This document shows positions 1,575 through 16,592 of a DNA stretch of 50,095 nt, in pieces; positions within the stretch are counted from its first letter, which is position 1, and each line of letters begins with the position of its first letter. Under the pieces are notes generated by a model that worked only from the letters and a program-made list of their open reading frames with translations, made no database searches and had not been told where the DNA came from. The translations under genes were made by a program, and so were the position numbers. The stretch is from a virus. Taxonomy: Duplodnaviria; Heunggongvirae; Uroviricota; Caudoviricetes. The stretch lies in IMG/VR virus record IMGVR_UViG_646564533_000009, one strand, 5' to 3'.

Positions 1575-4025
1575 TTAAAAATCAGCCTGATTCGGGAGCA
1601 GTTTTTGCCAGATAGTTGAAACGTATTTTGCCTGGTAACGGGCATCATCCAGCGCATTGTGGCGCTCACCTTCGAATGGGATAGCAGTTCTGGCATCGAA
1701 GTCTACGGCTTTCCCCAGCTCAACGATTGTGCGTACATCGCGATCGTTGCAGTAGCGCCACGGGCAGGGGATACCCTGTCGTTCGTATGAACGGCGCAAA
1801 ATAGTGTTGTCGAAGTTGGCCCCATTACCCCAGACCTGAACAAAAAACTCACCGGAGTTTTCGTCGATAAATTCCCGCAATTGCAGTAGTGCATCATCTA
1901 ACGGGATTTCATCGGTCATAATGGCAGACTGCGCTTCACGTGATTGCTTCAGCCACCATTTAATGACGTCACGATCAATGACTCCGCCAGCAGTATCCAG
2001 ATCGATGGTCTTGCTAAATTCTGGTCCCATATCTCCGGTTTGCGGATCGAAAAATATTGCGCCTATTGAGATAATCGGGGCATCGGGATTTTTTCCCATG
2101 GTTTCAAGGTCGATCATCAGATGAATCCCCGCTCTGCTGGTGGATGTGAGATTATGATGACTGTTCGCCTTAATTAAGGGATCTGACGCCTCGCCAGTTT
2201 CACTATCGCTGGCATGATGCTGATTGCCGCCAGTGTTCTCCTTGTGCTGATGTGCAGTACCTTCCATTTCCTCCGGATCATTTTCCTGAACTTCAGGCTG
2301 ATTCTCTTCATCGAATATTTCCTGGTATGTTGCGTCGCCCATCACCGCGCCACAATCAGGGCAGTTGCCGCCGCCGGTCTGACCGCAGGCGGTGCAGACT
2401 TTTTCCACTTCCTGTTGCGCCACTGGTTCAGGCTGTTTCGTTTCTGGCTCGTTTTGTAACGCATTTGGGCTGTTCTGTTCCGTTTCTTGCTGGTTCTGGT
2501 TCACAGAATCGCGGGTTTCAATCCCCTTCACCCATTTCGGATCATTCGGGTCGCTAATCCCTGCAACAAATTCACCACGTGATGCGGCGAGCAACTGATT
2601 GGCGTCAGGCTGGCTGATATTGGCTGCCTGCATAATTTTCTTTACTTCGTCAGCGGTAACTTTTACCGGTTCTGGTTGTTCAGAATTTTGTGCGGTATTT
2701 GCATTTTGCGGTAAGCCTGTGTATGTGCCATTTTTTCGGGCAAAATATTCTTCTTTTGTGATTTCAGTAGCCCCGGCAGCCAGCGCCTTATCCAGACCAG
2801 AAAGTTTGTTTGCGCGACCGTATTTTTCGCAATCCTTGTCGGTGAAGAGGAAGTAGAACGGCCCCTCACGCTCTACAGATGGTTCGACTTCCACTTTGCA
2901 TTCGGTTTTTTCGTTGTCCGGAATTGCCGTTTCCACTGCATCAGTTTCTGGTACTGGCGACGAGAGAGTGTCAGTTGCGCTCTGATTTGTTCCTTCATCT
3001 TCAAACACGCCCTTTGTAGTCAGGTATTCAGTAATGTATTTGTTCAGTGCCACAGGGTCTTTGTGAATGTCGATCGGACGTTCACGGACAAGGCCAAAAA
3101 TAGTCTGGCGGTCGTAGCGAAGGGCATCAGGCTGTTTGCGCATTGATGCCGAGATACGCTTCCAGTCTTCGCGGTCGTTGTCGATAACTTCATTTTTTGC
3201 CCAGCGATGGATGCTGCCGTCAATGTTTCCGGCATCCACATCACCAGGCCAGAGAGCGTAGGCCAGTTCGTCATCCAGTGTTTTCCATGTCTGCTTATAT
3301 TCGCGACGAATGACTGCAGTGACAGGGGGGATTTTTTCTGCTGAGTTTTCAGTGTGCTGTCGGTGGACTCTGGCGCGGGCGAGATCAACAACAGACGTGT
3401 ATTTTCCGGTTTCCTTGCGTTCACCTTCGCGACGTTTTTTCCAGATGCGCATTTCTGCCTGAATTTCGGGCCATTTGGCACCAGGCTTACATTTATGCTT
3501 AACCCACCCGATGGCATGCAGCTTAAGCTCCGGATACATGGCGTTAACTTCTGGCATTTTCATCAACGCTTCAACGATATGTCCGTCGAATGTTGCCATG
3601 TCTTCCTGCAACAATTCCTGCGCGCTAATCACCATATCAACGGTGATGTTTTCACATGTGTCGAACTTAACCATGACAGCGTTCTGTACTTCAGGGGCCA
3701 GCTTGTCAAAAGCGACGTTCATCGGATCTGATTCAGTCTCAACCGGGACAAAGGAAGCAGCCCCCTCATCCCAGCGGTTTTCCTGCATATATTCAGCATC
3801 CCAGGAATCGAGGGCAGGGCGGGGTATACCGGGTTTATCCTCGCAAACAAGAAATTTATAAGCGCAGTCCTGAGCAGCCGGATAATGCTCCAGGAATTGC
3901 CAGTGAAATTTTGCGCGGGCGCGACGTTCATCACCGGCTTCAATGGCAGTGGCTACAGCGACTGCACCTTCTTCCTTTATTGCCTGTTCGTCCGGAATGG
4001 CGGCGCAAATAAAGACTTTACTCAT
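1575..4025 (-). CDS. Exonuclease-family protein (YdfE / exodeoxyribonuclease VIII-like) with internal zinc ribbon and C-terminal DEDDh 3'-5' exonuclease domain
   Basis: 816-aa ORF; C-terminus carries DEDDh-type motifs (MIDLETMG, WGNGANFDNTIL, HNALDDARYQ); CxxC...CxxC pair (CTACGQTGGGNCPDCG); sits in the lambda exo/recombination position between dicB-ydfD and xis-int. Confidence 0.75.
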   Translation of the reverse strand: MSKVFICAAIPDEQAIKEEGAVAVATAIEAGDERRARAKFHWQFLEHYPAAQDCAYKFLVCEDKPGIPRPALDSWDAEYMQENRWDEGAASFVPVETESDPMNVAFDKLAPEVQNAVMVKFDTCENITVDMVISAQELLQEDMATFDGHIVEALMKMPEVNAMYPELKLHAIGWVKHKCKPGAKWPEIQAEMRIWKKRREGERKETGKYTSVVDLARARVHRQHTENSAEKIPPVTAVIRREYKQTWKTLDDELAYALWPGDVDAGNIDGSIHRWAKNEVIDNDREDWKRISASMRKQPDALRYDRQTIFGLVRERPIDIHKDPVALNKYITEYLTTKGVFEDEGTNQSATDTLSSPVPETDAVETAIPDNEKTECKVEVEPSVEREGPFYFLFTDKDCEKYGRANKLSGLDKALAAGATEITKEEYFARKNGTYTGLPQNANTAQNSEQPEPVKVTADEVKKIMQAANISQPDANQLLAASRGEFVAGISDPNDPKWVKGIETRDSVNQNQQETEQNSPNALQNEPETKQPEPVAQQEVEKVCTACGQTGGGNCPDCGAVMGDATYQEIFDEENQPEVQENDPEEMEGTAHQHKENTGGNQHHASDSETGEASDPLIKANSHHNLTSTSRAGIHLMIDLETMGKNPDAPIISIGAIFFDPQTGDMGPEFSKTIDLDTAGGVIDRDVIKWWLKQSREAQSAIMTDEIPLDDALLQLREFIDENSGEFFVQVWGNGANFDNTILRRSYERQGIPCPWRYCNDRDVRTIVELGKAVDFDARTAIPFEGERHNALDDARYQAKYVSTIWQKLLPNQADF

Positions 4026-4117
4026 TTTGTTTTACCTCATTACAGATTTAAGGGTGAACAAATCCCTGCCATTGCTGGCATATAAGAATGAAATCGGATG
4101 TTTATTACGGAACTGTT

Positions 4118-4309
4118 TTAAAGACCTGCCGGGATTTCGTTATTATCCTGGTGAATAACTTTATCGACCGGGTAACAGTTACCGGGAATTTTCTGTTCGG
4201 TTGCTGCAGTCACACACTCCTGCATTGTCCTGTGAACACTGACTGCAATATCAACTGGCTCTCCGGAAACAAGAAAAACTGTCAGAACAAGTGCAAATGC
4301 TGTATTCAT
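4118..4309 (-). CDS. ydfD: YdfD-like small membrane protein (DUF1482-type)
   Basis: 63-aa reading MNTAFALVLTVFLVSGEPVD...; overlaps the dicB stop by 4 nt; matches the Qin prophage dicB-ydfD arrangement (from memory). Confidence 0.65.
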   Translation of the reverse strand: MNTAFALVLTVFLVSGEPVDIAVSVHRTMQECVTAATEQKIPGNCYPVDKVIHQDNNEIPAGL

Positions 4310-4494
4310 TGCCAGCATCCTTTTTGTATCGGACGTAAACGGGCCAGCATTGAAAGAATGCATATTTTATTTAATAACTCCCGTTCGTGTTTTCTCTTGT
4401 TAATGGCATCTTCAGTAAATACAGGGTTACTGATAGTGACACCAATTTCAAAACAACCTTCAGACGTATTAACGTTTGGTAATAACGTTTCCAT
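4306..4494 (-). CDS. dicB: Cell division inhibitor DicB
   Basis: 62-aa METLLPNVNTSEGCFEIGVTISNPVFTEDAINKRK...KGCWQ, near-identical to recalled DicB; lies immediately downstream of a DicF-like sequence. Confidence 0.85.
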   Translation of the reverse strand: METLLPNVNTSEGCFEIGVTISNPVFTEDAINKRKHERELLNKICILSMLARLRPIQKGCWQ

Positions 4495-4663
4495 TATCGC
4501 GTCCTCAACAATGAATTTTGTGATGCGGTGCCTGGTGCCTCCAGGTGACGTTAACCAGTTAACAATTAACGCCGGATACAGTGAATCCCCCCATAACACT
4601 GTTTTTAGCTTTAACTGTTCCGCGTGCGCTTAGCCGCATTCACTGCATCACAAAATTCACTTT

Positions 4664-4719
4664 AAAAAGGGCGGACATCAGTTCATGGGCAAACAGATGC
4701 CGCCAAACGTCACCAGAAA
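4664..4719 (-). ncRNA. dicF: DicF-like small RNA
   Basis: Minus-strand sequence UUUCUGGUGACGUUUGGCGG...CCGCCC followed by a U-run, matching the recalled DicF seed and terminator; positioned upstream of dicB as in Qin. Confidence 0.6.
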
Positions 4720-5263
4720 ATTGATAACAGAGGGCGTTGCAGCGGGGTTGTCACTTAAGCGTATGGTCAACCTGACAACCCGGTGTCCTCAACGGGGAAG
4801 GAATAACCCCGCCATACTTACCGCTGCGCCATTTCGCGGAGTGCCACAACCGGAAGCGCACGGTCGACGAAAATTTAACGACAGGCTATCTATGAACCAG
4901 CAACCTCGCCGTGCGCTTTCGCGTTATGCTCTGACTTTTCAGAGAAATATCCTTTCAGTAAACTGTCAGTGCCGGATGTTCACCCGTGTCCGGCGCACGC
5001 ACTCCACTTCACCCGTGGAGAACTCCTTAATTACCAACCCTCAGGAGGGTGAATGTTAAAATCAACTCTTATTGCTAAATGCCTTTATCAAAATCGCATG
5101 GTAAGCAGCATTTCAATAGGCGAGTCTGCAGTTAAAAGTATTTTCGAAGAGTACTTTCCCGGGCATGATTTTAATAAATGGAATACCAAATTACCGCCAG
5201 CAGTTTCAACGCGTATTCTGAAAGCAACCGAAAGAGCAAGTACAATTCGCGTTAACTATTTCA

Positions 5264-5671
5264 TTAAAGATTTGTGGGATCTTTGATATCCACAGAGCCT
5301 AAAGTATGTGCATATGGATGTGCTATTATGCGCCCTCGCAGATTTGCATCATTTTCTAAATTCACTGAACGAAACAGGGCATCAACAAGGCTCTGTACAA
5401 TGCAAAGGCAATCGAAGACTGTCGCCGTTTCTGTTTTGATTGATGAAAGAACATGGCCATTCACGCAAACAGAAATTACCCGTTTATTAACATCGCTTTC
5501 CTGCTTTTGATTATCAGAACCATATAGCCCAGAAAAAGCATTGCGCACATTACGAACCATATTATCGATGGTTTCTTTTTCTGCGGTACTAAGGTCAAGA
5601 GTAGCCAGTTGTGAACGAACTATATTCGATGCCATTTCCTGTAATGGCGTTGGTAAATCTTTAAATTCCAT
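5264..5671 (-). CDS. Hypothetical protein, early-left operon
   Basis: 135-aa ORF on the strand of the dicA-side leftward operon; no recognisable family. Confidence 0.45.
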   Translation of the reverse strand: MEFKDLPTPLQEMASNIVRSQLATLDLSTAEKETIDNMVRNVRNAFSGLYGSDNQKQESDVNKRVISVCVNGHVLSSIKTETATVFDCLCIVQSLVDALFRSVNLENDANLRGRIIAHPYAHTLGSVDIKDPTNL

Positions 5672-5693
5672 TATTAGCCTCGTTGGTTAGCTA

Positions 5694-5912
5694 TTAACGT
5701 GGGTATGTAATCATTCTGGCAATGCTTAATGCCGCTGCTTTTTCCAGATTGGTGATATCCTGCTCCAGAGCGGACAGATTTTCAGCCTGCTTAGCCCTGG
5801 CTTCATTGGCCCATTTCAGGTCCTGCACCGCCTTAATTTTCTGGTGCATCCACTCATAAAGTTCATCATCGGTATAGTCTGGCGCGATGATGACGGGGTC
5901 TCGTTTCTGCAT
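5694..5912 (-). CDS. Hypothetical small protein, early-left operon
   Basis: 72-aa ORF co-directional with dicB operon genes; 22-bp spacing to the downstream ORF. Confidence 0.45.
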   Translation of the reverse strand: MQKRDPVIIAPDYTDDELYEWMHQKIKAVQDLKWANEARAKQAENLSALEQDITNLEKAAALSIARMITYPR

Positions 5913-5984
5913 GTCGGCTCCTTGTGGTTAGCGTTGCCTGCTTTTTAACCACGTCAGGCGAGGTGGTATCCTCTGAGGGGTCTG

Positions 5985-6341
5985 TTACTCGAGAGGAAAT
6001 TGGTTATGAATACAATCAAGTTTTCTTGCCCAGAATGTGGTGGCTAAGTCTTTGACACATCCTTTAAGCCGCAGGGCTCTGACAGTTTCGCGGGAGCCAT
6101 CTGCAAAAATTGTGGTCACCTTGTAACTGAAGATGAGTCCTCGCAGTTCGATGACGAAATCGTTGACAATATCTTCGGTGCACTCACCAGAGACTTTCTG
6201 AAGTAAAGGCGCATACCGCTTAGTTACCGCTCTGATAACTCTTACCTGTCCGGCAATGGCGCTGATATCAATATAAAGCGCCATCGCTGTTTCTTTGCTG
6301 ATCCCTGGACGCCTTCCATTCTGATGTTTGACTTCGCCCAC
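5985..6341 (-). CDS. Hypothetical protein in lambda N-like position
   Basis: 118-aa ORF; first gene downstream of a putative OL-like operator region left of dicA; true start may be an internal Met. Confidence 0.4.
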   Translation of the reverse strand: MGEVKHQNGRRPGISKETAMALYIDISAIAGQVRVIRAVTKRYAPLLQKVSGECTEDIVNDFVIELRGLIFSYKVTTIFADGSRETVRALRLKGCVKDLATTFWARKLDCIHNQFPLE

Positions 6342-6423
6342 TGAGAAATCCTCTGCTTCCCCTTAACGCCGGGTAGCGGAACTGTTTGCTGAGAACACCG
6401 TGCGGTGTCTTGATGAGTAGAAT

Positions 6424-6437
6424 TTAGAATAGCCTAA
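6424..6437. promoter_or_regulatory. Candidate repressor operator (TTAG-N6-CTAA palindrome), OL-like
   Basis: Perfect palindrome ttagaatagcctaa in the intergenic region downstream of dicA and upstream of the leftward operon; same motif as the two sites between dicA and dicC. Confidence 0.35.
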
Positions 6438-6548
6438 GAGTTATGGTCAAGCTTTTTGTGTAGAAAAACCTAAGCTTCTTGATGTAAAAAACACAAGTAT
6501 TTGAAAGTTTGTGCTTTTTATTACAGAGAGTTGCGAAAAAAAGGGGGG

Positions 6549-6956
6549 TTATTTATTTGCGCTTCTTTTGCGAGCTTTGAGTAGTTCTTCAAAAAGTTTG
6601 TTGAAATTCTCAACTCGAGCACGCATCTCTGACAACAGAGCCTTTTGCTCTGACTCAGGCAGTGCGTCGAACAGTTGAAGCAACTCTTTTTGATCTTCTG
6701 TCAGATTGACTGGCTGATTATCTGGGATCGGTTCGCCTGGTTGCTTATCTTCATCTCCAAAAAGAAGCCAAGTCGGCGAGCACTGAAGCGCCTGGCTCAG
6801 TGCGAATAATCTCTTCCCCGCTGGCTGTGTTTCATCTCTTTCCCATTGAGAAATTGTTACGTGAGCCACTTTGACCAGCTTACCTAATGCGGCCTGAGAC
6901 AGTTTTAATTTTTTTCGCCTGTATAAGAGGCGAGCACCGAAGGTTTCGTTTTTCAT
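6549..6956 (-). CDS. dicA: HTH repressor DicA (cI-like immunity repressor)
   Basis: 135-aa XRE-family HTH protein with strong recalled similarity to DicA (…SQWERDE…LFALSQALQCSPTWLLFGDEDKQP…FNKLFEELLKAR); divergent from dicC. Confidence 0.9.
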   Translation of the reverse strand: MKNETFGARLLYRRKKLKLSQAALGKLVKVAHVTISQWERDETQPAGKRLFALSQALQCSPTWLLFGDEDKQPGEPIPDNQPVNLTEDQKELLQLFDALPESEQKALLSEMRARVENFNKLFEELLKARKRSANK

Positions 6957-6957
6957 A

Positions 6958-7022
6958 TTAGGTAATTCTAATTTTTCTTGACTTAGGTTTCTCTACGATC
7001 TAGTTTCCTTAGGAAAATCTAA
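6958..7022. promoter_or_regulatory. dicA-dicC divergent promoter/operator region with two TTAG-N6-CTAA palindromes
   Basis: ttaggtaattctaa (6958-6971) and ttaggaaaatctaa (7009-7022) in the 76-bp gap between divergent repressor genes. Confidence 0.4.
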
Positions 7023-7032
7023 GGGGTTCGAT

Positions 7033-7260
7033 ATGTTGAAAATTGATGCTATAGCGTTTTTTGGCAGCAAAACAAAGCTTGCCAATGTCGCAGGAGTTAG
7101 GCTGGCAAGCGTTGCTGCATGGGGGGAACTGGTTCCTGAAGGTCGCGCGATGCGCCTGCAAGAGGCATCCGGCGGGGAACTTCAGTACGACCCCAAAGTT
7201 TATGACGAATATCGTAAGGCAAAGCGGGCGGGGCGGTTGAACAATGAAAATCACCACTGA
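7033..7260 (+). CDS. dicC: Cro-like regulator DicC
   Basis: 75-aa MLKIDAIAFFGSKTKLA…RAMRLQEASGGELQYDPKVYDEYRK…, strong recalled match to DicC. Confidence 0.85.
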   Translation: MLKIDAIAFFGSKTKLANVAGVRLASVAAWGELVPEGRAMRLQEASGGELQYDPKVYDEYRKAKRAGRLNNENHH

Positions 7261-7795
7261 ACAGGTTTGTGAGGCTCTGGATACCTGGGTATGCCGACCA
7301 GGAATGACACAGGAGCAGGCGACGATATTAATCACGGAAGCATTCTGGGCTCTGAAAGAACGCCCGAACATCGATGTTCAACGCGTCACGTTTAATGATG
7401 GCGAGGTTGATCAACGGGCGCTGGGCGTTAACCGGGTGAAGATATTCGAACGCTGGAAAGCTATCGACACCAGAGATAAGCGTGACAAATTCACGGCGCT
7501 GATTCCGGCAATTATGGAGGCTATCCGGATCAGCGATTTCAGATTGTATTGTGAAATTACTGACGGAAAAAGCATTACGTACATGATCGCCGGGTTAAAC
7601 AAAGAATATGGCGATGTGGTGGAGTCCGGGCTGCTTTTTGCGGATCCAGTTGTTGTGGAACGTGAGACTGACGAGCTTATAGAAAAAGCTATTGCTTTCA
7701 AGCACGCGTATCGTCAGCAATACCAATATTACTTTGCAGATAAACAAATGTCTGCCAGGGGTTCGTATGAGTATCGATGCACTACGATGGGCTAA
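7244..7795 (+). CDS. YdaT-like protein (cII-position regulatory protein)
   Basis: 183-aa ORF directly after the cro-like gene; central region resembles the YdaT family (recalled). Confidence 0.55.
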   Translation: MKITTEQVCEALDTWVCRPGMTQEQATILITEAFWALKERPNIDVQRVTFNDGEVDQRALGVNRVKIFERWKAIDTRDKRDKFTALIPAIMEAIRISDFRLYCEITDGKSITYMIAGLNKEYGDVVESGLLFADPVVVERETDELIEKAIAFKHAYRQQYQYYFADKQMSARGSYEYRCTTMG

Positions 7796-8807
7796 AAAGG
7801 TGAAAACCGGCAGTTCATCCAGTAAGTCAGTATTGACCTGGCTTGCTGATATGTGCGGTGCCGATTTGTGTGCATACCCGTCTGTATCTGCACTGGCAGA
7901 AGTAACGGAACTGAACAAAAAGACTGTGCAGGACAGCTTACGACACCTGATGGAGATTGGGTTAATTGTTGATACCGGTGAGAGAAAAGGCAGAACAAAG
8001 CAAATTGTGGTGTACCGACTTATCGGTGTAGAAGAAAGTGTTGCCGAGCCTGAATACACCCAAAAACGGGAGTCTTTAAAGGTGGGTAAAATTGGTGCTG
8101 TTAATAAAAACAGTACCGAAAATGGTTATGTTTCAGCACAAAACAGACCCAAAAACAGAACTCTTAGCTGCATGGAAAATAACCAAAGACACCCAAATTT
8201 TCCATCAAAGACACCCAAAAACGGATCACGGAACCCAAAGGAACCCAAAGATCTAAACCCCACACATAACGCACGCGAGAGTGCTCCGACCAGTGAGCAG
8301 GAAGTTTTGTCGTTACAGGCAGCCCCCCCTGTATTCCTGTATGGCCTGAGCGAACCCATCGGAAAATTCCCGATGAGCGATAGCTGGTATCCGTCACGGG
8401 ATTTTCGACGACGGGCTGCGTTGTGGGGGATGGCTTTGCCGGAGACAGAATTTACACCTGCTGAACTTGCCGCCTTCCGGGACTACTGGGCAGCGGAGGG
8501 GAAAGTGTTTACGCAGATTCAGTGGGAGCAGAAATTCGCCCGTCACGTAAATCACGTCAGGGCGCAGGTTAAACCAGTCAGCAAAGGGGTAAACCATGCA
8601 GCAGCACCAGGTGGCACCGCATCACGGGCAGTTCAGGAAATTCGGGCAGCACGTGAGCAGTGGGAACGTGAAAACGGATTTATCAGCGACGGAAACGGCC
8701 TGGAAGCTGTGGGAACTCATGGGGGTGGTTTATTCGAACCGCTGGATCCAGAAGAACGGGGCCGCACCTTCGAAGCTCTGGATTGCACAGATTGGCGCGA
8801 TGACTGA
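7767..8807 (+). CDS. Replication initiation protein (lambda O-like, HTH N-terminus plus DnaT-like domain)
   Basis: ATG at 7767 (MSIDALRWAKK…); N-terminal wHTH replication-initiator-like region; central DSWYPSRDFRRRAALWG…FRDYWAAEG motif; stop overlaps an ATGA at 8800-8807. C-terminal ~70 codons overlap the P-like ORF. Confidence 0.7.
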   Translation: MSIDALRWAKKVKTGSSSSKSVLTWLADMCGADLCAYPSVSALAEVTELNKKTVQDSLRHLMEIGLIVDTGERKGRTKQIVVYRLIGVEESVAEPEYTQKRESLKVGKIGAVNKNSTENGYVSAQNRPKNRTLSCMENNQRHPNFPSKTPKNGSRNPKEPKDLNPTHNARESAPTSEQEVLSLQAAPPVFLYGLSEPIGKFPMSDSWYPSRDFRRRAALWGMALPETEFTPAELAAFRDYWAAEGKVFTQIQWEQKFARHVNHVRAQVKPVSKGVNHAAAPGGTASRAVQEIRAAREQWERENGFISDGNGLEAVGTHGGGLFEPLDPEERGRTFEALDCTDWRDD

Positions 8808-11647: not shown

Positions 11648-11883
11648 CATCCTCGTCCTTCAGGACGTGGATTCTTTTTCCGGATGCCGCGCCAGCGGCA
11701 TGTAGGGGCAGCTCACAAAACGGAAAAAATTGTACGCTAAGCCTCGCCAGGTGAACTGAATTCATTCCGATATGGGAATTCCCATATCGGGCGAAAACGG
11801 TTTGCTGTAACGGCAGAGTTAAGTAGGATTGCTGCGGGTGCTTGAGGCTATCTGCCTCGGGCATGAACACCAACGGCAGATAG

Positions 11884-11935
11884 ATAAAAGCCCCACCCGA
11901 CTATAAATCGAAGTGAGGCCCCTATATGCTCGTCA
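11884..11935 (-). ncRNA. sok: Predicted Sok-like antisense RNA
   Basis: Minus strand has a TTGACC -35-like element (plus 11964-11969) and a hairpin GCCUCAC…GUGGGGC followed by a U-run (ending near 11884), antisense to the mok/hok leader. Confidence 0.4.
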
Positions 11936-12138
11936 CATATAGATTGCCTCTTACGGACCGAAAGGTCAAGGAGAAGCAGGCTATGAAGCAGCAAAAGGCG
12001 ATGTTAATCGCCCTGATCGTCATCTGTTTAACCGTCATAGTGACGGCACTGGTAACGAGGAAAGACCTCTGCGAGGTACGAATCCGAACCGGCCAGACGG
12101 AGGTCGCTGTCTTCACAGCTTACGAACCTGAGGAGTAA
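11926..12138 (+). CDS. mok: Mok (in-frame N-terminal extension frame over hok)
   Basis: 70-codon frame sharing its stop with hok, as in chromosomal hok/mok loci. Confidence 0.6.
   Translation: MLVTYRLPLTDRKVKEKQAMKQQKAMLIALIVICLTVIVTALVTRKDLCEVRIRTGQTEVAVFTAYEPEE
11983..12138 (+). CDS. hok: Hok/Gef-family type I toxin
   Basis: 51-aa MKQQKAMLIALIVICLTVIVTALVTRKDLCEVRIRTGQTEVAVFTAYEPEE, very close to recalled Hok/Gef sequences. Confidence 0.9.
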   Translation: MKQQKAMLIALIVICLTVIVTALVTRKDLCEVRIRTGQTEVAVFTAYEPEE

Positions 12139-15269: not shown

Positions 15270-15345
15270 GGCCCTTTAGCTCAGTGGTGAGAGCGAGCGA
15301 CTCATAATCGCCAGGTCGCTGGTTCAAATCCAGCAAGGGCCACCA
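15270..15345 (+). tRNA. ileZ: tRNA with CAU anticodon (ileZ-type tRNA-Ile2 / Met-like)
   Basis: Manual cloverleaf: acceptor ggccctt/aagggcc, anticodon loop cuCAUaa, T-loop ttcaaat, encoded CCA. Confidence 0.8.
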
Positions 15346-15346
15346 A

Positions 15347-15422
15347 CCGCCACTAGCCATCAGGAAAGAGCGTCAACCCTTTAAGTTGAGTGTGCGAGGT
15401 TCGAGTCCCCGGTGGTGGTCCA
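15347..15422 (+). tRNA. tRNA-like gene with atypical anticodon loop (argN position)
   Basis: Standard spacing: acceptor ccgccac/gtggtgg, U8A9, perfect anticodon stem tcaac/gttga, T-loop ttcgagt, encoded CCA. D-stem is weak and the anticodon loop reads ccuuuaa (C33; anticodon UUU by position), so identity is uncertain. Confidence 0.5.
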
Positions 15423-15435
15423 TTATCGGTATTCT

Positions 15436-15509
15436 GCGTTGTTAGCTCAGCAGGACAGAGCAATTGCCTTCTAAGCAATCGGTCACTGGTTCGACTCCAG
15501 TACAACGCG
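15436..15509 (+). tRNA. argO: tRNA-Arg (UCU anticodon)
   Basis: Manual cloverleaf: acceptor gcgttgt/acaacgc, D-arm gctc…gagc, anticodon loop cuUCUaa, T-loop ttcgact. Confidence 0.8.
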
Positions 15510-16113: not shown

Positions 16114-16592
16114 ACGGTAAAACTGCGCCTGACTGTGGCTGCACTCCTGCTGTTTCTGGTGGTGATGGTGGATTTCACCAGCAGAATCATGTCGGTGCTG
16201 GCGGATGGGGGGCTGGTCTGCGGCATTATGGTATTGCTGTGGCCGGTGATAAAAAGAAACAGCCTGCATAATGCTTGATTTTTTTGTTTGCTGTTTATTA
16301 AAAACACTTCTGCATGGTGAATCCCCCTGTGCGGTGGGGCAATCAGCAAGAAGGAATATGGGGTAATCGCGGATTCAGGTGCTGATACTGAATTCACCGG
16401 GAGGCACCCGGCACCATGCTTTGCCACAAAAGTGTTATTTCTGTTTTTCTCAAACTATCATCGTTATCCCTTTATTTTCGGCTGCGCATGGCGCGGCCTT
16501 TTTTTTACGACCAGCCACTGGCAGATGGTCATCCTGTGATTTGATTCCGCTTCCGGCTTTTTAACTCTGTTCCTCTACACGGGAGAAATTCG

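Follow-up and report, generated by a model that had tools for sequence, protein, structure and literature searches.

In lambdoid phages, the early-left operon is a site of exclusion genes such as sieB, and an antisense RNA is involved in the SieB/Esc system of P22. The SieB exclusion phenotype itself has been described (PMC10883804). A second early-left system, the dicBF operon of the Qin prophage of K-12, is a long-studied model of host-affecting prophage genes, with the gene order dicA, ydfA-ydfB-ydfC-dicF-dicB-ydfD. Its polycistronic transcript is processed by the RNases E and III (PMC10448788), and its DicF, DicB and YdfD products are toxic (PMC5069750, PMC10448788). The promoter-proximal genes have no assigned role, and ydfABC is still described as uncharacterised (PMC10448788, PMC5069750). 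Here, we compare these systems with a related locus in a phage-derived stretch of 50,095 nucleotides (the window), concentrating on the genes that lie between its dicA and DicF.

A dicBF-type early-left operon in prophage PPompW

The region is the promoter-proximal stretch of a DicA-repressed, dicBF-type early-left operon in prophage PPompW, with the following features in window coordinates.

6549-6956: transcriptional repressor DicA (NCBIfam NF007257; score 241.6 bits, cutoff 101)
6421..6450, minus strand: dicBp-like sigma-70 promoter of the early-left operon (TTGACC, 18-nt spacer, TAAATT; promoter scan)
6357..6382, minus strand: leader element GTTCCGCTACCCGGCGTTAAGGGGAA, a small hairpin directly 5′ of the first ORF and its Shine-Dalgarno (SD) sequence
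6349-6353, minus strand: SD sequence of the first ORF, GAGGA
5985..6341, minus strand: ORF118, an orphan small basic protein (phrog_21318, E = 8.6e-67)
5694..5912, minus strand: ydfC, 72 aa, acidic and predicted to be helical
4719..5039, minus strand: DicF precursor leader, untranslated and structured, 321 nt, matching the untranslated region between ydfC and dicF of K-12 at 96.3% identity
4669..4718, minus strand: DicF variant sRNA (Rfam RF00039, E = 1.8e-7, 43.5 bits, which is below the gathering score of 48)
4306-4494, minus strand: dicB (DicB Pfam E = 1.7e-37)
4118-4309, minus strand: DUF1482/ydfD-like gene (DUF1482 E = 3.7e-25)

An initial annotation of this DNA had described three minus-strand ORFs in an early-left position under a DicA-type repressor, co-directional with DicF, dicB and ydfD. 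This description was borne out: the ORFs were found at the claimed sizes (5985-6341, 118 aa from a GTG; 5694-5912, 72 aa; 5264-5671, 135 aa) on the same strand as the DicF-like RNA, dicB and the DUF1482/ydfD-like gene, and the adjacent repressor matches the NCBIfam DicA model. Membership in the dicBF type follows from the presence of a DicA-family repressor with a divergent promoter region, and of DicF, then dicB and ydfD; in pairwise alignment, the promoter occupies the position of the K-12 dicB promoter. The locus thus shares with K-12 Qin its repressor family, promoter position, 5′ leader, gene order and strand, at identities of 95.9% for ydfC (nucleotide level, over 219 nt of b1573), 96.3% for the DicF leader, 93.1% for dicB and 97.4% for ydfD. 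Differences are an unrelated ORF118 in place of ydfA and ydfB, a 634-nt cassette (ORF135 and ORF77) inserted between ydfC and the DicF leader, and the 3′ terminator hairpin of DicF, the 5′ seed of which is identical to that of K-12. PPompW is an E. coli O55:H7/O157-like prophage that is common in E. coli and appears complete, whereas Qin of K-12 is cryptic.

Upstream of DicF, about 540 bp had been taken to be free of minus-strand ORFs. None of any size indeed exists in the ~545 nt between ORF135 and DicF, but this interval is occupied: a plus-strand gene, ORF77, lies at 5053-5286, and the DicF precursor leader at 4719-5039. The 386-nt stretch at 4660-5045, DicF included, has a fold z-score of -4.0. 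A plus-strand ORF of 124 aa at 4685-5059, antisense to DicF and the leader, was rejected as a gene, being truncated or frameshifted in related loci.

The minus-strand genes and their families

The three minus-strand ORFs are real genes encoding small, apparently soluble proteins. They are more than chance reading frames because each has an SD sequence at its 5′ side, an end-to-end match to a PHROG family (E-values from 9e-39 to 9e-67) and diverged homologues in other prophages. The earlier verdict that none was recognisable stood as far as established function is concerned, Pfam, NCBIfam, PADLOC, PDB sequence and fold searches being empty, and gave way for the 72-aa ORF, which on sequence similarity is YdfC, a known K-12 family without known function. 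This assignment rests on the near-identity to b1573, on a phrog_1744 match to residues 1-68 of 68 (E = 9.1e-39), on the RefSeq product name for 5694-5912 (‘protein YdfC’) and on position, as the gene lies upstream of the DicF leader of a dicBF-type operon in the same orientation, with the 634-nt cassette between them. The one family thereby assigned is accordingly not one with established function. The earlier suggestion that these ORFs include new inhibitors is still a hypothesis. The sole paper with many mentions of YdfC concerns an evolved artificial function in yeast and not a native role, and a literature search by protein accession found nothing.

Remote homology searches, proposed as a check, were uninformative throughout. 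For ORF118, YdfC, ORF135, ORF77 and six alternative opposite-strand proteins described below, they covered Pfam, NCBIfam and PADLOC, sequence profiles of the PDB and, with HMMER, an exhaustive scan of 1.84 billion representatives; repeat proteins P0182 and P0204 from the latter are low-complexity artefacts. The PHROG matches are all to ‘unknown function’ families, PADLOC defence models gave no match for ORF118, YdfC, ORF135 or ORF77 at E ≤ 0.1, and no known defence, anti-defence, toxin or antitoxin family was matched by any of the proteins. Structure prediction, likewise proposed as a check, yielded an AF2 model of ORF118 at pLDDT 74 with an alpha-alpha-beta-beta-alpha layout, for which fold searches found no relatives, and a model of ORF135 that was too poor for use (pLDDT 50), the sole BFVD match of which was a 52-aa homologue of its own N-terminal domain.

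ORF118 occupies the place of K-12 ydfA/ydfB and is related to neither: no DUF1391 (YdfA) match was found, and the region does not align with K-12 ydfA or ydfB, the 42% identity there being alignment noise. Its family is tiny, with only 23 protein clusters, in E. coli, Klebsiella and Citrobacter. The GTG at 6341 (118 aa) has the better SD sequence, while RefSeq and the distant homologues use an alternative ATG at 6284 that gives 99 aa; profile-profile comparison of this 99-aa form with ORF135 detected no relationship.

The placement of these ORFs had been likened to that of lambda N, and on this basis ORF118 could work like N, as an antiterminator with a nut-like target in the leader (6357-6382). 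As with lambda N and nutL, ORF118 comes first among the genes behind the early-left promoter and has a small hairpin just before it that is conserved in all related operons, and dicB is reached only if the operon reads through the DicF terminator. Against it, the N-terminus of ORF118, MGEVKHQNGRRPGISK, has only two arginines and no arginine-rich motif, Pfam and PHROGs gave no N family match, and the leader has no boxA/boxB consensus, its hairpin not fitting the boxB form. Furthermore, in K-12 and all dicB-type loci retrieved, irrespective of their immunity type, the GTTCCGCTACCCGGCGTTAAGGGGAA element stands before the opening ORF of the early-left operon, yet the genes behind it are unrelated (ydfA, a ydfC-like gene, a 110-aa ORF). 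ORF118 homologues are also placed in an early-right operon, as well as downstream of an STnc100-like element, and the predicted structure is a folded alpha/beta domain, whereas N is disordered. We consider an N-like role very improbable.

A convergent gene pair in a polymorphic slot

The initial annotation missed that ORF135 is one half of a convergent two-gene unit. ORF135 (5264-5671, 135 aa) is modular, and the unit comprises the following elements.

5507..5671, minus strand: ORF135 N-domain, residues 1-55 (MEFKDLP...GLY), conserved in all E. coli/Salmonella family members (alignments)
5264..5506, minus strand: ORF135 C-domain, residues ~56-135 (‘VNG’ domain), the cassette-specific part and partner of ORF77
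5053..5286, plus strand: ORF77, 77 aa, with an AGGAGG SD sequence (RefSeq CDS WP_000920491.1)
4969..5052, plus strand: ORF77 5′ flank with three dyad symmetries, the third including the SD sequence; conserved

ORF77 and ORF135 are arranged tail to tail, with 3′ ends that overlap by 23 nt. The ORF135 N-domain is common to PHROGs 1363, 6937, 2151, 9419 and 33007 and is restricted to prophages of E. coli and Salmonella. In Serratia, Yersinia, Klebsiella and Proteus, the C-domain has counterparts at 34–40% identity, either stand-alone proteins of 77–80 aa or the C-terminal end of a protein of 191 aa, and each of them faces an ORF77 homologue in convergent orientation. ORF77 homologues are 77 aa long, with 55–72% identity across at least eight enterobacterial genera and 30 invariant columns. 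In the Serratia, Yersinia, Klebsiella and Proteus prophages, this first pair keeps an overlap of 23–26 nt despite different flanking genes and 34–72% protein identity. A second, independent pair, formed by the last ~45 aa of a 201-aa variant and a 63-aa opposite-strand gene, recurs in convergent and overlapping form in Edwardsiella phage EPP-1 and Shigella phage SfII. Stacked domains of this kind occur in the minus-strand proteins of the 201-aa form, of EPP-1 and of Yersinia, where a gene fusion joins a YdfC-like domain with the ORF135 C-domain (alignment at E = 1e-10) and so ties YdfC to the latter. Charge complementarity between ORF77 and the C-domain in the window's own pair was discarded as a feature, as it is not conserved in other pairs or genera. 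No clear membrane segment was found in ORF77 (top 19-aa hydropathy window 0.59), and the corresponding value for ORF135, 1.58, is borderline.

Together, ORF135 and ORF77 form an AT-rich cassette of 634 nt (5040-5673; GC 36–41% compared to 52% for the window) that is absent from K-12 Qin and carried by 645 (~12%) of 5426 complete E. coli genomes, O157:H7, O145:H28 and O111 among them, and by the culturable phage Evi. The site is a slot with conserved flanks at which at least eight alternative cassettes are found in E. coli, and from one to the next, the C-domain type on the minus strand and the gene on the opposite strand vary in step. Across 93 surveyed loci, every C-domain cluster corresponded to one opposite-strand gene cluster with a single exception, the 201-aa variant, which keeps the pair-1 C-domain, carries the pair-2 gene and lacks ORF77. 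Pairs are not kept everywhere: the family member carried by Stx phages lacks an intact partner on the opposite strand, and at several loci the gene on that strand has decayed to a pseudogene.

Conserved ribosome-binding flanks are common to unrelated opposite-strand genes, and the same flank layout was found 5′ of such genes in E. coli and five other genera. Across six E. coli variants, this flank folds with z-scores of -2.4 to -4.6 in the sense direction and -0.3 to -1.9 in the antisense direction; the dyad symmetries may be RNA structure or DNA operators. Loci outside E. coli have a conserved extended -10 promoter, TGGTATCTT. No convincing promoter was found for the E. coli version of ORF77, only a weak TTTTCA-17-TAAACT match at 4936-4964.

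Candidate antagonism and alternative readings

Our preferred reading, held tentatively and as somewhat less than probable, is that ORF77 and the ORF135 C-domain are a cognate antagonist pair tied to the state of lysis or lysogeny and serving phage-against-phage conflict. On this reading, based on gene arrangement and covariation, the two would be cognate and probably physically interacting antagonists. In a lysogen, DicA would hold the early-left promoter off while ORF77 is made from its own signals; upon derepression, leftward transcription would run antisense through ORF77 and produce ORF135, the C-domain of which would neutralise ORF77. The most likely role for such a pair would be conflict between phages, with ORF77 as a prophage-expressed exclusion or interference factor and ORF135 as an early counter-factor that frees lytic growth of its own phage, or of a phage with the same cassette, from ORF77. 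YdfC would belong to this functional set as a further early accessory module, and so, possibly, would ORF118. The stacking of several domains in minus-strand proteins would fit an accumulating counter-factor.

The evidence for a cognate pair also applies if the roles are reversed in a toxin/immunity-like manner. ORF135 (perhaps also YdfC and ORF118) would then be a host-directed early inhibitor of the Kil/DicB type, and ORF77 a lysogen-expressed cognate antidote against leaky early-left expression or against the inhibitor of a superinfecting phage. Such a reversal suits an operon in which the neighbours DicF, DicB and YdfD are all toxic (PMC5069750, PMC10448788), and the partnerless family members are found only in lytic operons of Stx phages, where a toxin needs no antidote. 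We nevertheless regard it as rather unlikely, since none of the proteins resembles a toxin or antitoxin family, the convergent layout departs from that of the classical type II toxin-antitoxin operon, loss of an antidote through decay, as seen for the opposite-strand gene of resident prophages, would be dangerous, and several stacked toxin domains facing a single antidote are hard to explain.

It is also conceivable that the three ORFs and ORF77 are unrelated accessory genes, co-located in a recombination hot spot, with an overlap that reflects genome compaction and no interaction. Lambdoid early-left regions are mosaic, and conserved slot flanks would favour cassette exchange by recombination. 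Two different pairs, however, keep the convergent overlap in several genera each, in differing neighbourhoods and at 34–72% protein identity, and C-domain type and partner type match one to one within E. coli; that the genes are independent of each other is doubtful in our estimation.

Extending the preferred reading of ORF77 and ORF135 as antagonists, the stretch that separates ydfC from the DicF leader, together with its repressor-adjacent counterpart in other enterobacterial lambdoid phages, might constitute a polymorphic slot for an undescribed class of convergent overlapping cognate pairs, in which a small protein made in the lysogen is opposed by a neutralising C-domain made early in the lytic cycle. 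Such pairs could confer strain-specific exclusion and counter-exclusion, and the minus-strand proteins could be chains of counter-domains, YdfC-like ones included, accumulated against the factors of rival prophages. This generalisation is speculative, and we consider it rather unlikely to hold. The conserved convergent pair, the interchangeable cassettes in a fixed slot and the YdfC fusion turn a set of ‘hypothetical proteins’ into a testable hypothesis of phage-phage or phage-host conflict, and experiments are straightforward, as the cassette is present in ~12% of complete E. coli genomes and in the culturable phage Evi. Should exclusion or induction be controlled by the pair, it could help to decide which of the Shiga-toxin phages establish or spread in carrier strains.

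Among described systems, SieB/Esc offers a likeness in logic and location only: there, as may be the case here, an early-left prophage-expressed factor is combined with a phage-encoded, self-sparing escape function. The two differ in sequence, with no similarity, no SieB family match and no clear membrane segment at this locus, and in arrangement, as the sieB gene runs in the direction of the early-left operon and also yields Esc in frame, whereas ORF77 and ORF135 come from two distinct genes in convergent orientation. Type II toxin-antitoxin and polymorphic toxin-immunity systems are likewise small cognate pairs that vary together as cassettes, and the conserved N-terminal and variable C-terminal parts of ORF135 recall polymorphic toxins. 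Unlike such pairs, ORF77 and ORF135 have no match among toxin, antitoxin or immunity families, converge with an overlap of 23 nt instead of being co-transcribed, and have one partner placed under the control of a phage repressor.

A dicBF-type early-left operon

Positions 4000-8000 of the window match E. coli O55:H7 RM12579 and related O55:H7/O157-like genomes at 100% identity; in these genomes the matching element is a lambdoid prophage integrated beside ompW and deposited also in phage records under the name "PPompW". RefSeq orders the minus strand as integrase, excisionase, an 816-aa exonuclease, a DUF1482 protein, dicB, three small coding sequences and a helix-turn-helix repressor, and the rightward genes as cro-like, YdaT-like, DnaT-like and P-like; with 241.6 bits (cutoff 101), the repressor matches the NCBIfam model "transcriptional repressor DicA". 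Products of dicBF besides DicF, DicB and the lysis protein YdfD are uncharacterised (PMC5069750, PMC10448788). The features considered here are as follows.

4669-4718, minus: DicF-like RNA (Rfam 43.5 bits, E = 1.8e-7, below the gathering score of 48)
4719-5039: DicF precursor leader, part of the 540 bp without a minus-strand ORF
5053-5286, plus: ORF77, 77 aa, AGGAGG Shine-Dalgarno, annotated in RefSeq
5264-5671, minus: ORF135, 135 aa
5694-5912, minus: 72-aa ORF
5985-6341, minus: ORF118, 118 aa
6421-6450: promoter-like site (TTGACC, 18-nt spacer, TAAATT) aligning with the K-12 dicB promoter

The DicF copy shares its 5′ target-pairing seed with K-12 and falls under the Rfam threshold because its terminator hairpin differs; downstream lie dicB (Pfam E = 1.7e-37) and a DUF1482/ydfD-like gene (E = 3.7e-25). 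Immediately before the first early-left ORF, a conserved 26-nt element, GTTCCGCTACCCGGCGTTAAGGGGAA, forms a small hairpin (6357-6382, minus) that is present in the K-12 prophage Qin and in all related loci, regardless of immunity type or first gene; it is nutL-like in position, unlike nutL in sequence. Between DicF and dicB (4475-4680, minus) there is an STnc100-like element below threshold (32 bits against a gathering score of 47), a similar one precedes an ORF118 homologue in a further prophage group (L031, 3300-3480), and a full-scoring STnc100 copy occupies 16283-16455 (plus). Two isrC sRNA copies of 150.2 bits each (24288-24410, plus; 43583-43705, minus), inverted and ~19 kb apart, suggest a duplicated or inverted prophage segment. 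Positions 11836-11985 and 15270-15509 (both plus) take in a sok antitoxin RNA adjoining hokD and two tRNA genes within the prophage; the equivalent RefSeq locus also includes the adhesin gene paa and a fimbrial gene with a frameshift.

Three minus-strand genes and the interval upstream of DicF

All three minus-strand ORFs of the initial annotation lie where it had placed them, each with a full-length PHROG family match and a Shine-Dalgarno sequence (GAGGA 7 nt before GTG 6341, AAGGAG before ydfC, GAGG before ORF135), and they are genes of the early-left operon. Aligning the minus strand of 4100-7000 to the K-12 dicA-ydfD region gave identities of 95.9% for ydfC, 93.1% for dicB, 97.4% for ydfD, 96.3% for the 321 nt upstream of DicF and 85% for the 5′ leader after the promoter. 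The 72-aa ORF is therefore YdfC, a known family, so that the description of all three as unrecognisable holds for the orphans ORF118 and ORF135 only. The ORF118 stretch did not align with K-12 ydfA/ydfB, which identifies ORF118 as a replacement of both genes, and nothing in K-12 corresponds to 5040-5673 (634 nt), which places ORF135 within an indel. ORF118, ORF135, ORF77 and six alternative opposite-strand proteins had no Pfam, NCBIfam or PADLOC match, a search for relatives with a solved structure found none, and the proteins lack a clear membrane segment, ORF135 showing a single borderline amphipathic stretch.

The ORF118 family is very small (23 clusters), and its homologues always lie within early operons, though not always of the early-left dicBF type: in Klebsiella the gene has a cro-like gene on one side and the replication genes on the other, and in another group it follows an STnc100-like element and precedes kil. 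Its start may be GTG 6341 or that of a 99-aa form. Distant members from Klebsiella and Citrobacter (93-102 aa) have starts corresponding to about residue 18-20 of the window ORF, which favours the shorter form; the only good Shine-Dalgarno sequence in E. coli is at GTG 6341, exactly at the position of that of K-12 ydfA, and the N-terminal extension is open in 8/8 aligned full-length (118-aa) homologues. ORF118 was rejected as an N-like protein since an arginine-rich motif and an N family match are both lacking, a role disfavoured also by the conserved leader element preceding unrelated first genes in other phages.

The 540 bp upstream of DicF, noted initially as having no minus-strand ORF, are occupied by the DicF precursor leader and the plus-strand gene ORF77; the original finding is real, though partly mis-described. 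Leader and DicF together (4660-5045, 386 nt) have a much more favourable fold than their shuffled versions (z = -4.0). A large protein search recovered ORF77 homologues of exactly 77 aa and 55-72% identity from Klebsiella, Raoultella, Dickeya, Xenorhabdus, Salmonella, Morganella, Yersinia and Serratia, whose alignment has 30 invariant columns, and a genome scan added Proteus and a frameshifted copy in Photorhabdus. Judged by this conservation, ORF77 is a real protein family. A longer plus-strand ORF antisense to DicF (4685-5059) was rejected as a gene, being broken in related loci.

Three dyad symmetries directly precede ORF77 (4969-5052, plus), the third containing the Shine-Dalgarno sequence. 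The layout is found again, with other stems, ahead of unrelated opposite-strand genes in E. coli and in Serratia, Yersinia, Proteus, Edwardsiella and Shigella phages. Stems vary across lineages in hp1 (GCCGGA/TCCGGC, GCCGGG/CCCGGC, GCCTG/CAGGC) and in hp3 (CTCCT/AGGAG, CTCCAT/ATGGAG, CTTGG/CCAAG). In six E. coli variants the sense RNA of the 5′ flank folds better than the antisense; the symmetries may act as RNA leader or as DNA operator. In loci outside E. coli the start codon of the opposite-strand gene is preceded at ~35 nt by a conserved extended -10, TGGTATCTT, and a TTTTCA-like -35 lies a further ~18 nt upstream; in E. coli the ORF77 promoter has a single weak candidate (4936-4964).

Matched cassettes in E. 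coli and convergent pairs across genera

ORF135 and ORF77 form a cassette between ydfC and the DicF leader, present in 645/5426 complete E. coli genomes and with a GC content of 36-41%, against 52% for the window. Relatives of ORF135 came from enterobacterial prophages only (224 clusters in a k-mer-seeded search, 39 representatives in an exhaustive one); common to them are the ~50 N-terminal residues (MEFKDLP...KETIDN...NVR.AF.GLY), followed by mutually unrelated C-terminal parts, for total lengths of 122-212 aa. In every E. coli context fetched the gene comes after ydfC or a DUF1391 (ydfA-type) gene, and in most a small opposite-strand ORF of differing sequence converges on its 3′ end, beginning at either of two conserved ribosome-binding flanks at the DicF-leader border, AACCCTCAGGAGGGTGA(A)-ATG or ATGGAGGATAAA-ATG. 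The two partners vary in a matched manner.

Pairing of ORF135-family forms with opposite-strand genes in 93 loci, mostly from IMG/VR, a sample biased to close relatives of the window
135-aa form, 77-aa gene: 63 loci
201-aa form, 63-aa gene: 8 loci
124-aa form, 73-aa gene
208/212-aa forms, 69-aa gene
129-aa form, 99-aa gene
122-aa form, 100-aa gene
133-aa form, frameshifted 92-aa gene
One additional cassette type

In several prophages a frameshift, a truncation or an internal duplication affects the opposite-strand gene, with the minus-strand partner intact. Degraded copies were noted in comparison loci L009/L010 (4362-4646), L014, L085 and L097.

Beyond E. coli, two different convergent pairs recur. 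The first, present in Serratia, Yersinia, Klebsiella and Proteus prophages, joins an ORF77 homologue to a minus-strand gene with 34-40% identity to ORF135 residues ~56-135, whose product is either stand-alone (77-80 aa) or the C-terminal end of a longer protein of 191 aa; the genes overlap by 23 nt (26 nt in Yersinia) and lie just left of a CI-type repressor, at times as the first early-left gene. Of these, the Serratia, Yersinia and Klebsiella loci yielded no DicF or dicB. A 307-aa gene without Pfam match (L018, 4213-5136, minus) separates the CI repressor from the pair in Serratia, in a slot where lambdoid prophages often carry defence genes. The second pair, an independent case, comprises the additional C-terminal segment of the 201-aa E. 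coli variant and its different 63-aa opposite-strand gene, and recurs as a convergent overlapping pair in Edwardsiella phage EPP-1 and Shigella phage SfII. The SfII minus-strand partner, an unannotated 68-aa ORF (L028, 2654-2860, minus) convergent with SfII_36, matches the C-terminus of the 201-aa member at 50% identity over 44 residues and is probably a gene missed in the SfII record. Furthermore, a YdfC-like domain is fused to an ORF135-type domain: residues 29-88 of the Yersinia 191-aa protein, whose C-terminus is that domain, align with YdfC 5-64 (35% identity, 60% positives, pairwise E = 1e-10), which suggests that YdfC and the ORF135 C-domain act in the same process.

Possible roles of the convergent partners

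The main interest lies in the overlooked opposite-strand gene ORF77 and in the cognate-cassette architecture. With matched variation in E. coli and recurrence across genera, the partners would be expected to interact; a null model, in which ORF135, ORF77 and their neighbours are unrelated to one another, we regard as a less probable alternative. The partners may also be expressed in opposite states: ORF135 would depend on the DicA-repressed promoter, and the plus-strand partner faces that promoter, so that leftward transcription must cross it in antisense. We prefer to read ORF77 as a putative interference factor made in the lysogen and ORF135 as its early counter-factor, roles that would account for the several domains stacked in the minus-strand proteins. 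The same opposition could be cast in reverse, with ORF135 an early toxin and ORF77 the lysogen's antidote, an assignment we hold somewhat less probable. The SieB exclusion system has a phage-encoded escape function, Esc, and in P22 involves antisense RNA. Exclusion by SieB in P22 and lambda leaves the encoding phage untouched (PMC10883804) and is alike in logic and location to the preferred reading of ORF77 as interference factor and ORF135 as counter-factor.
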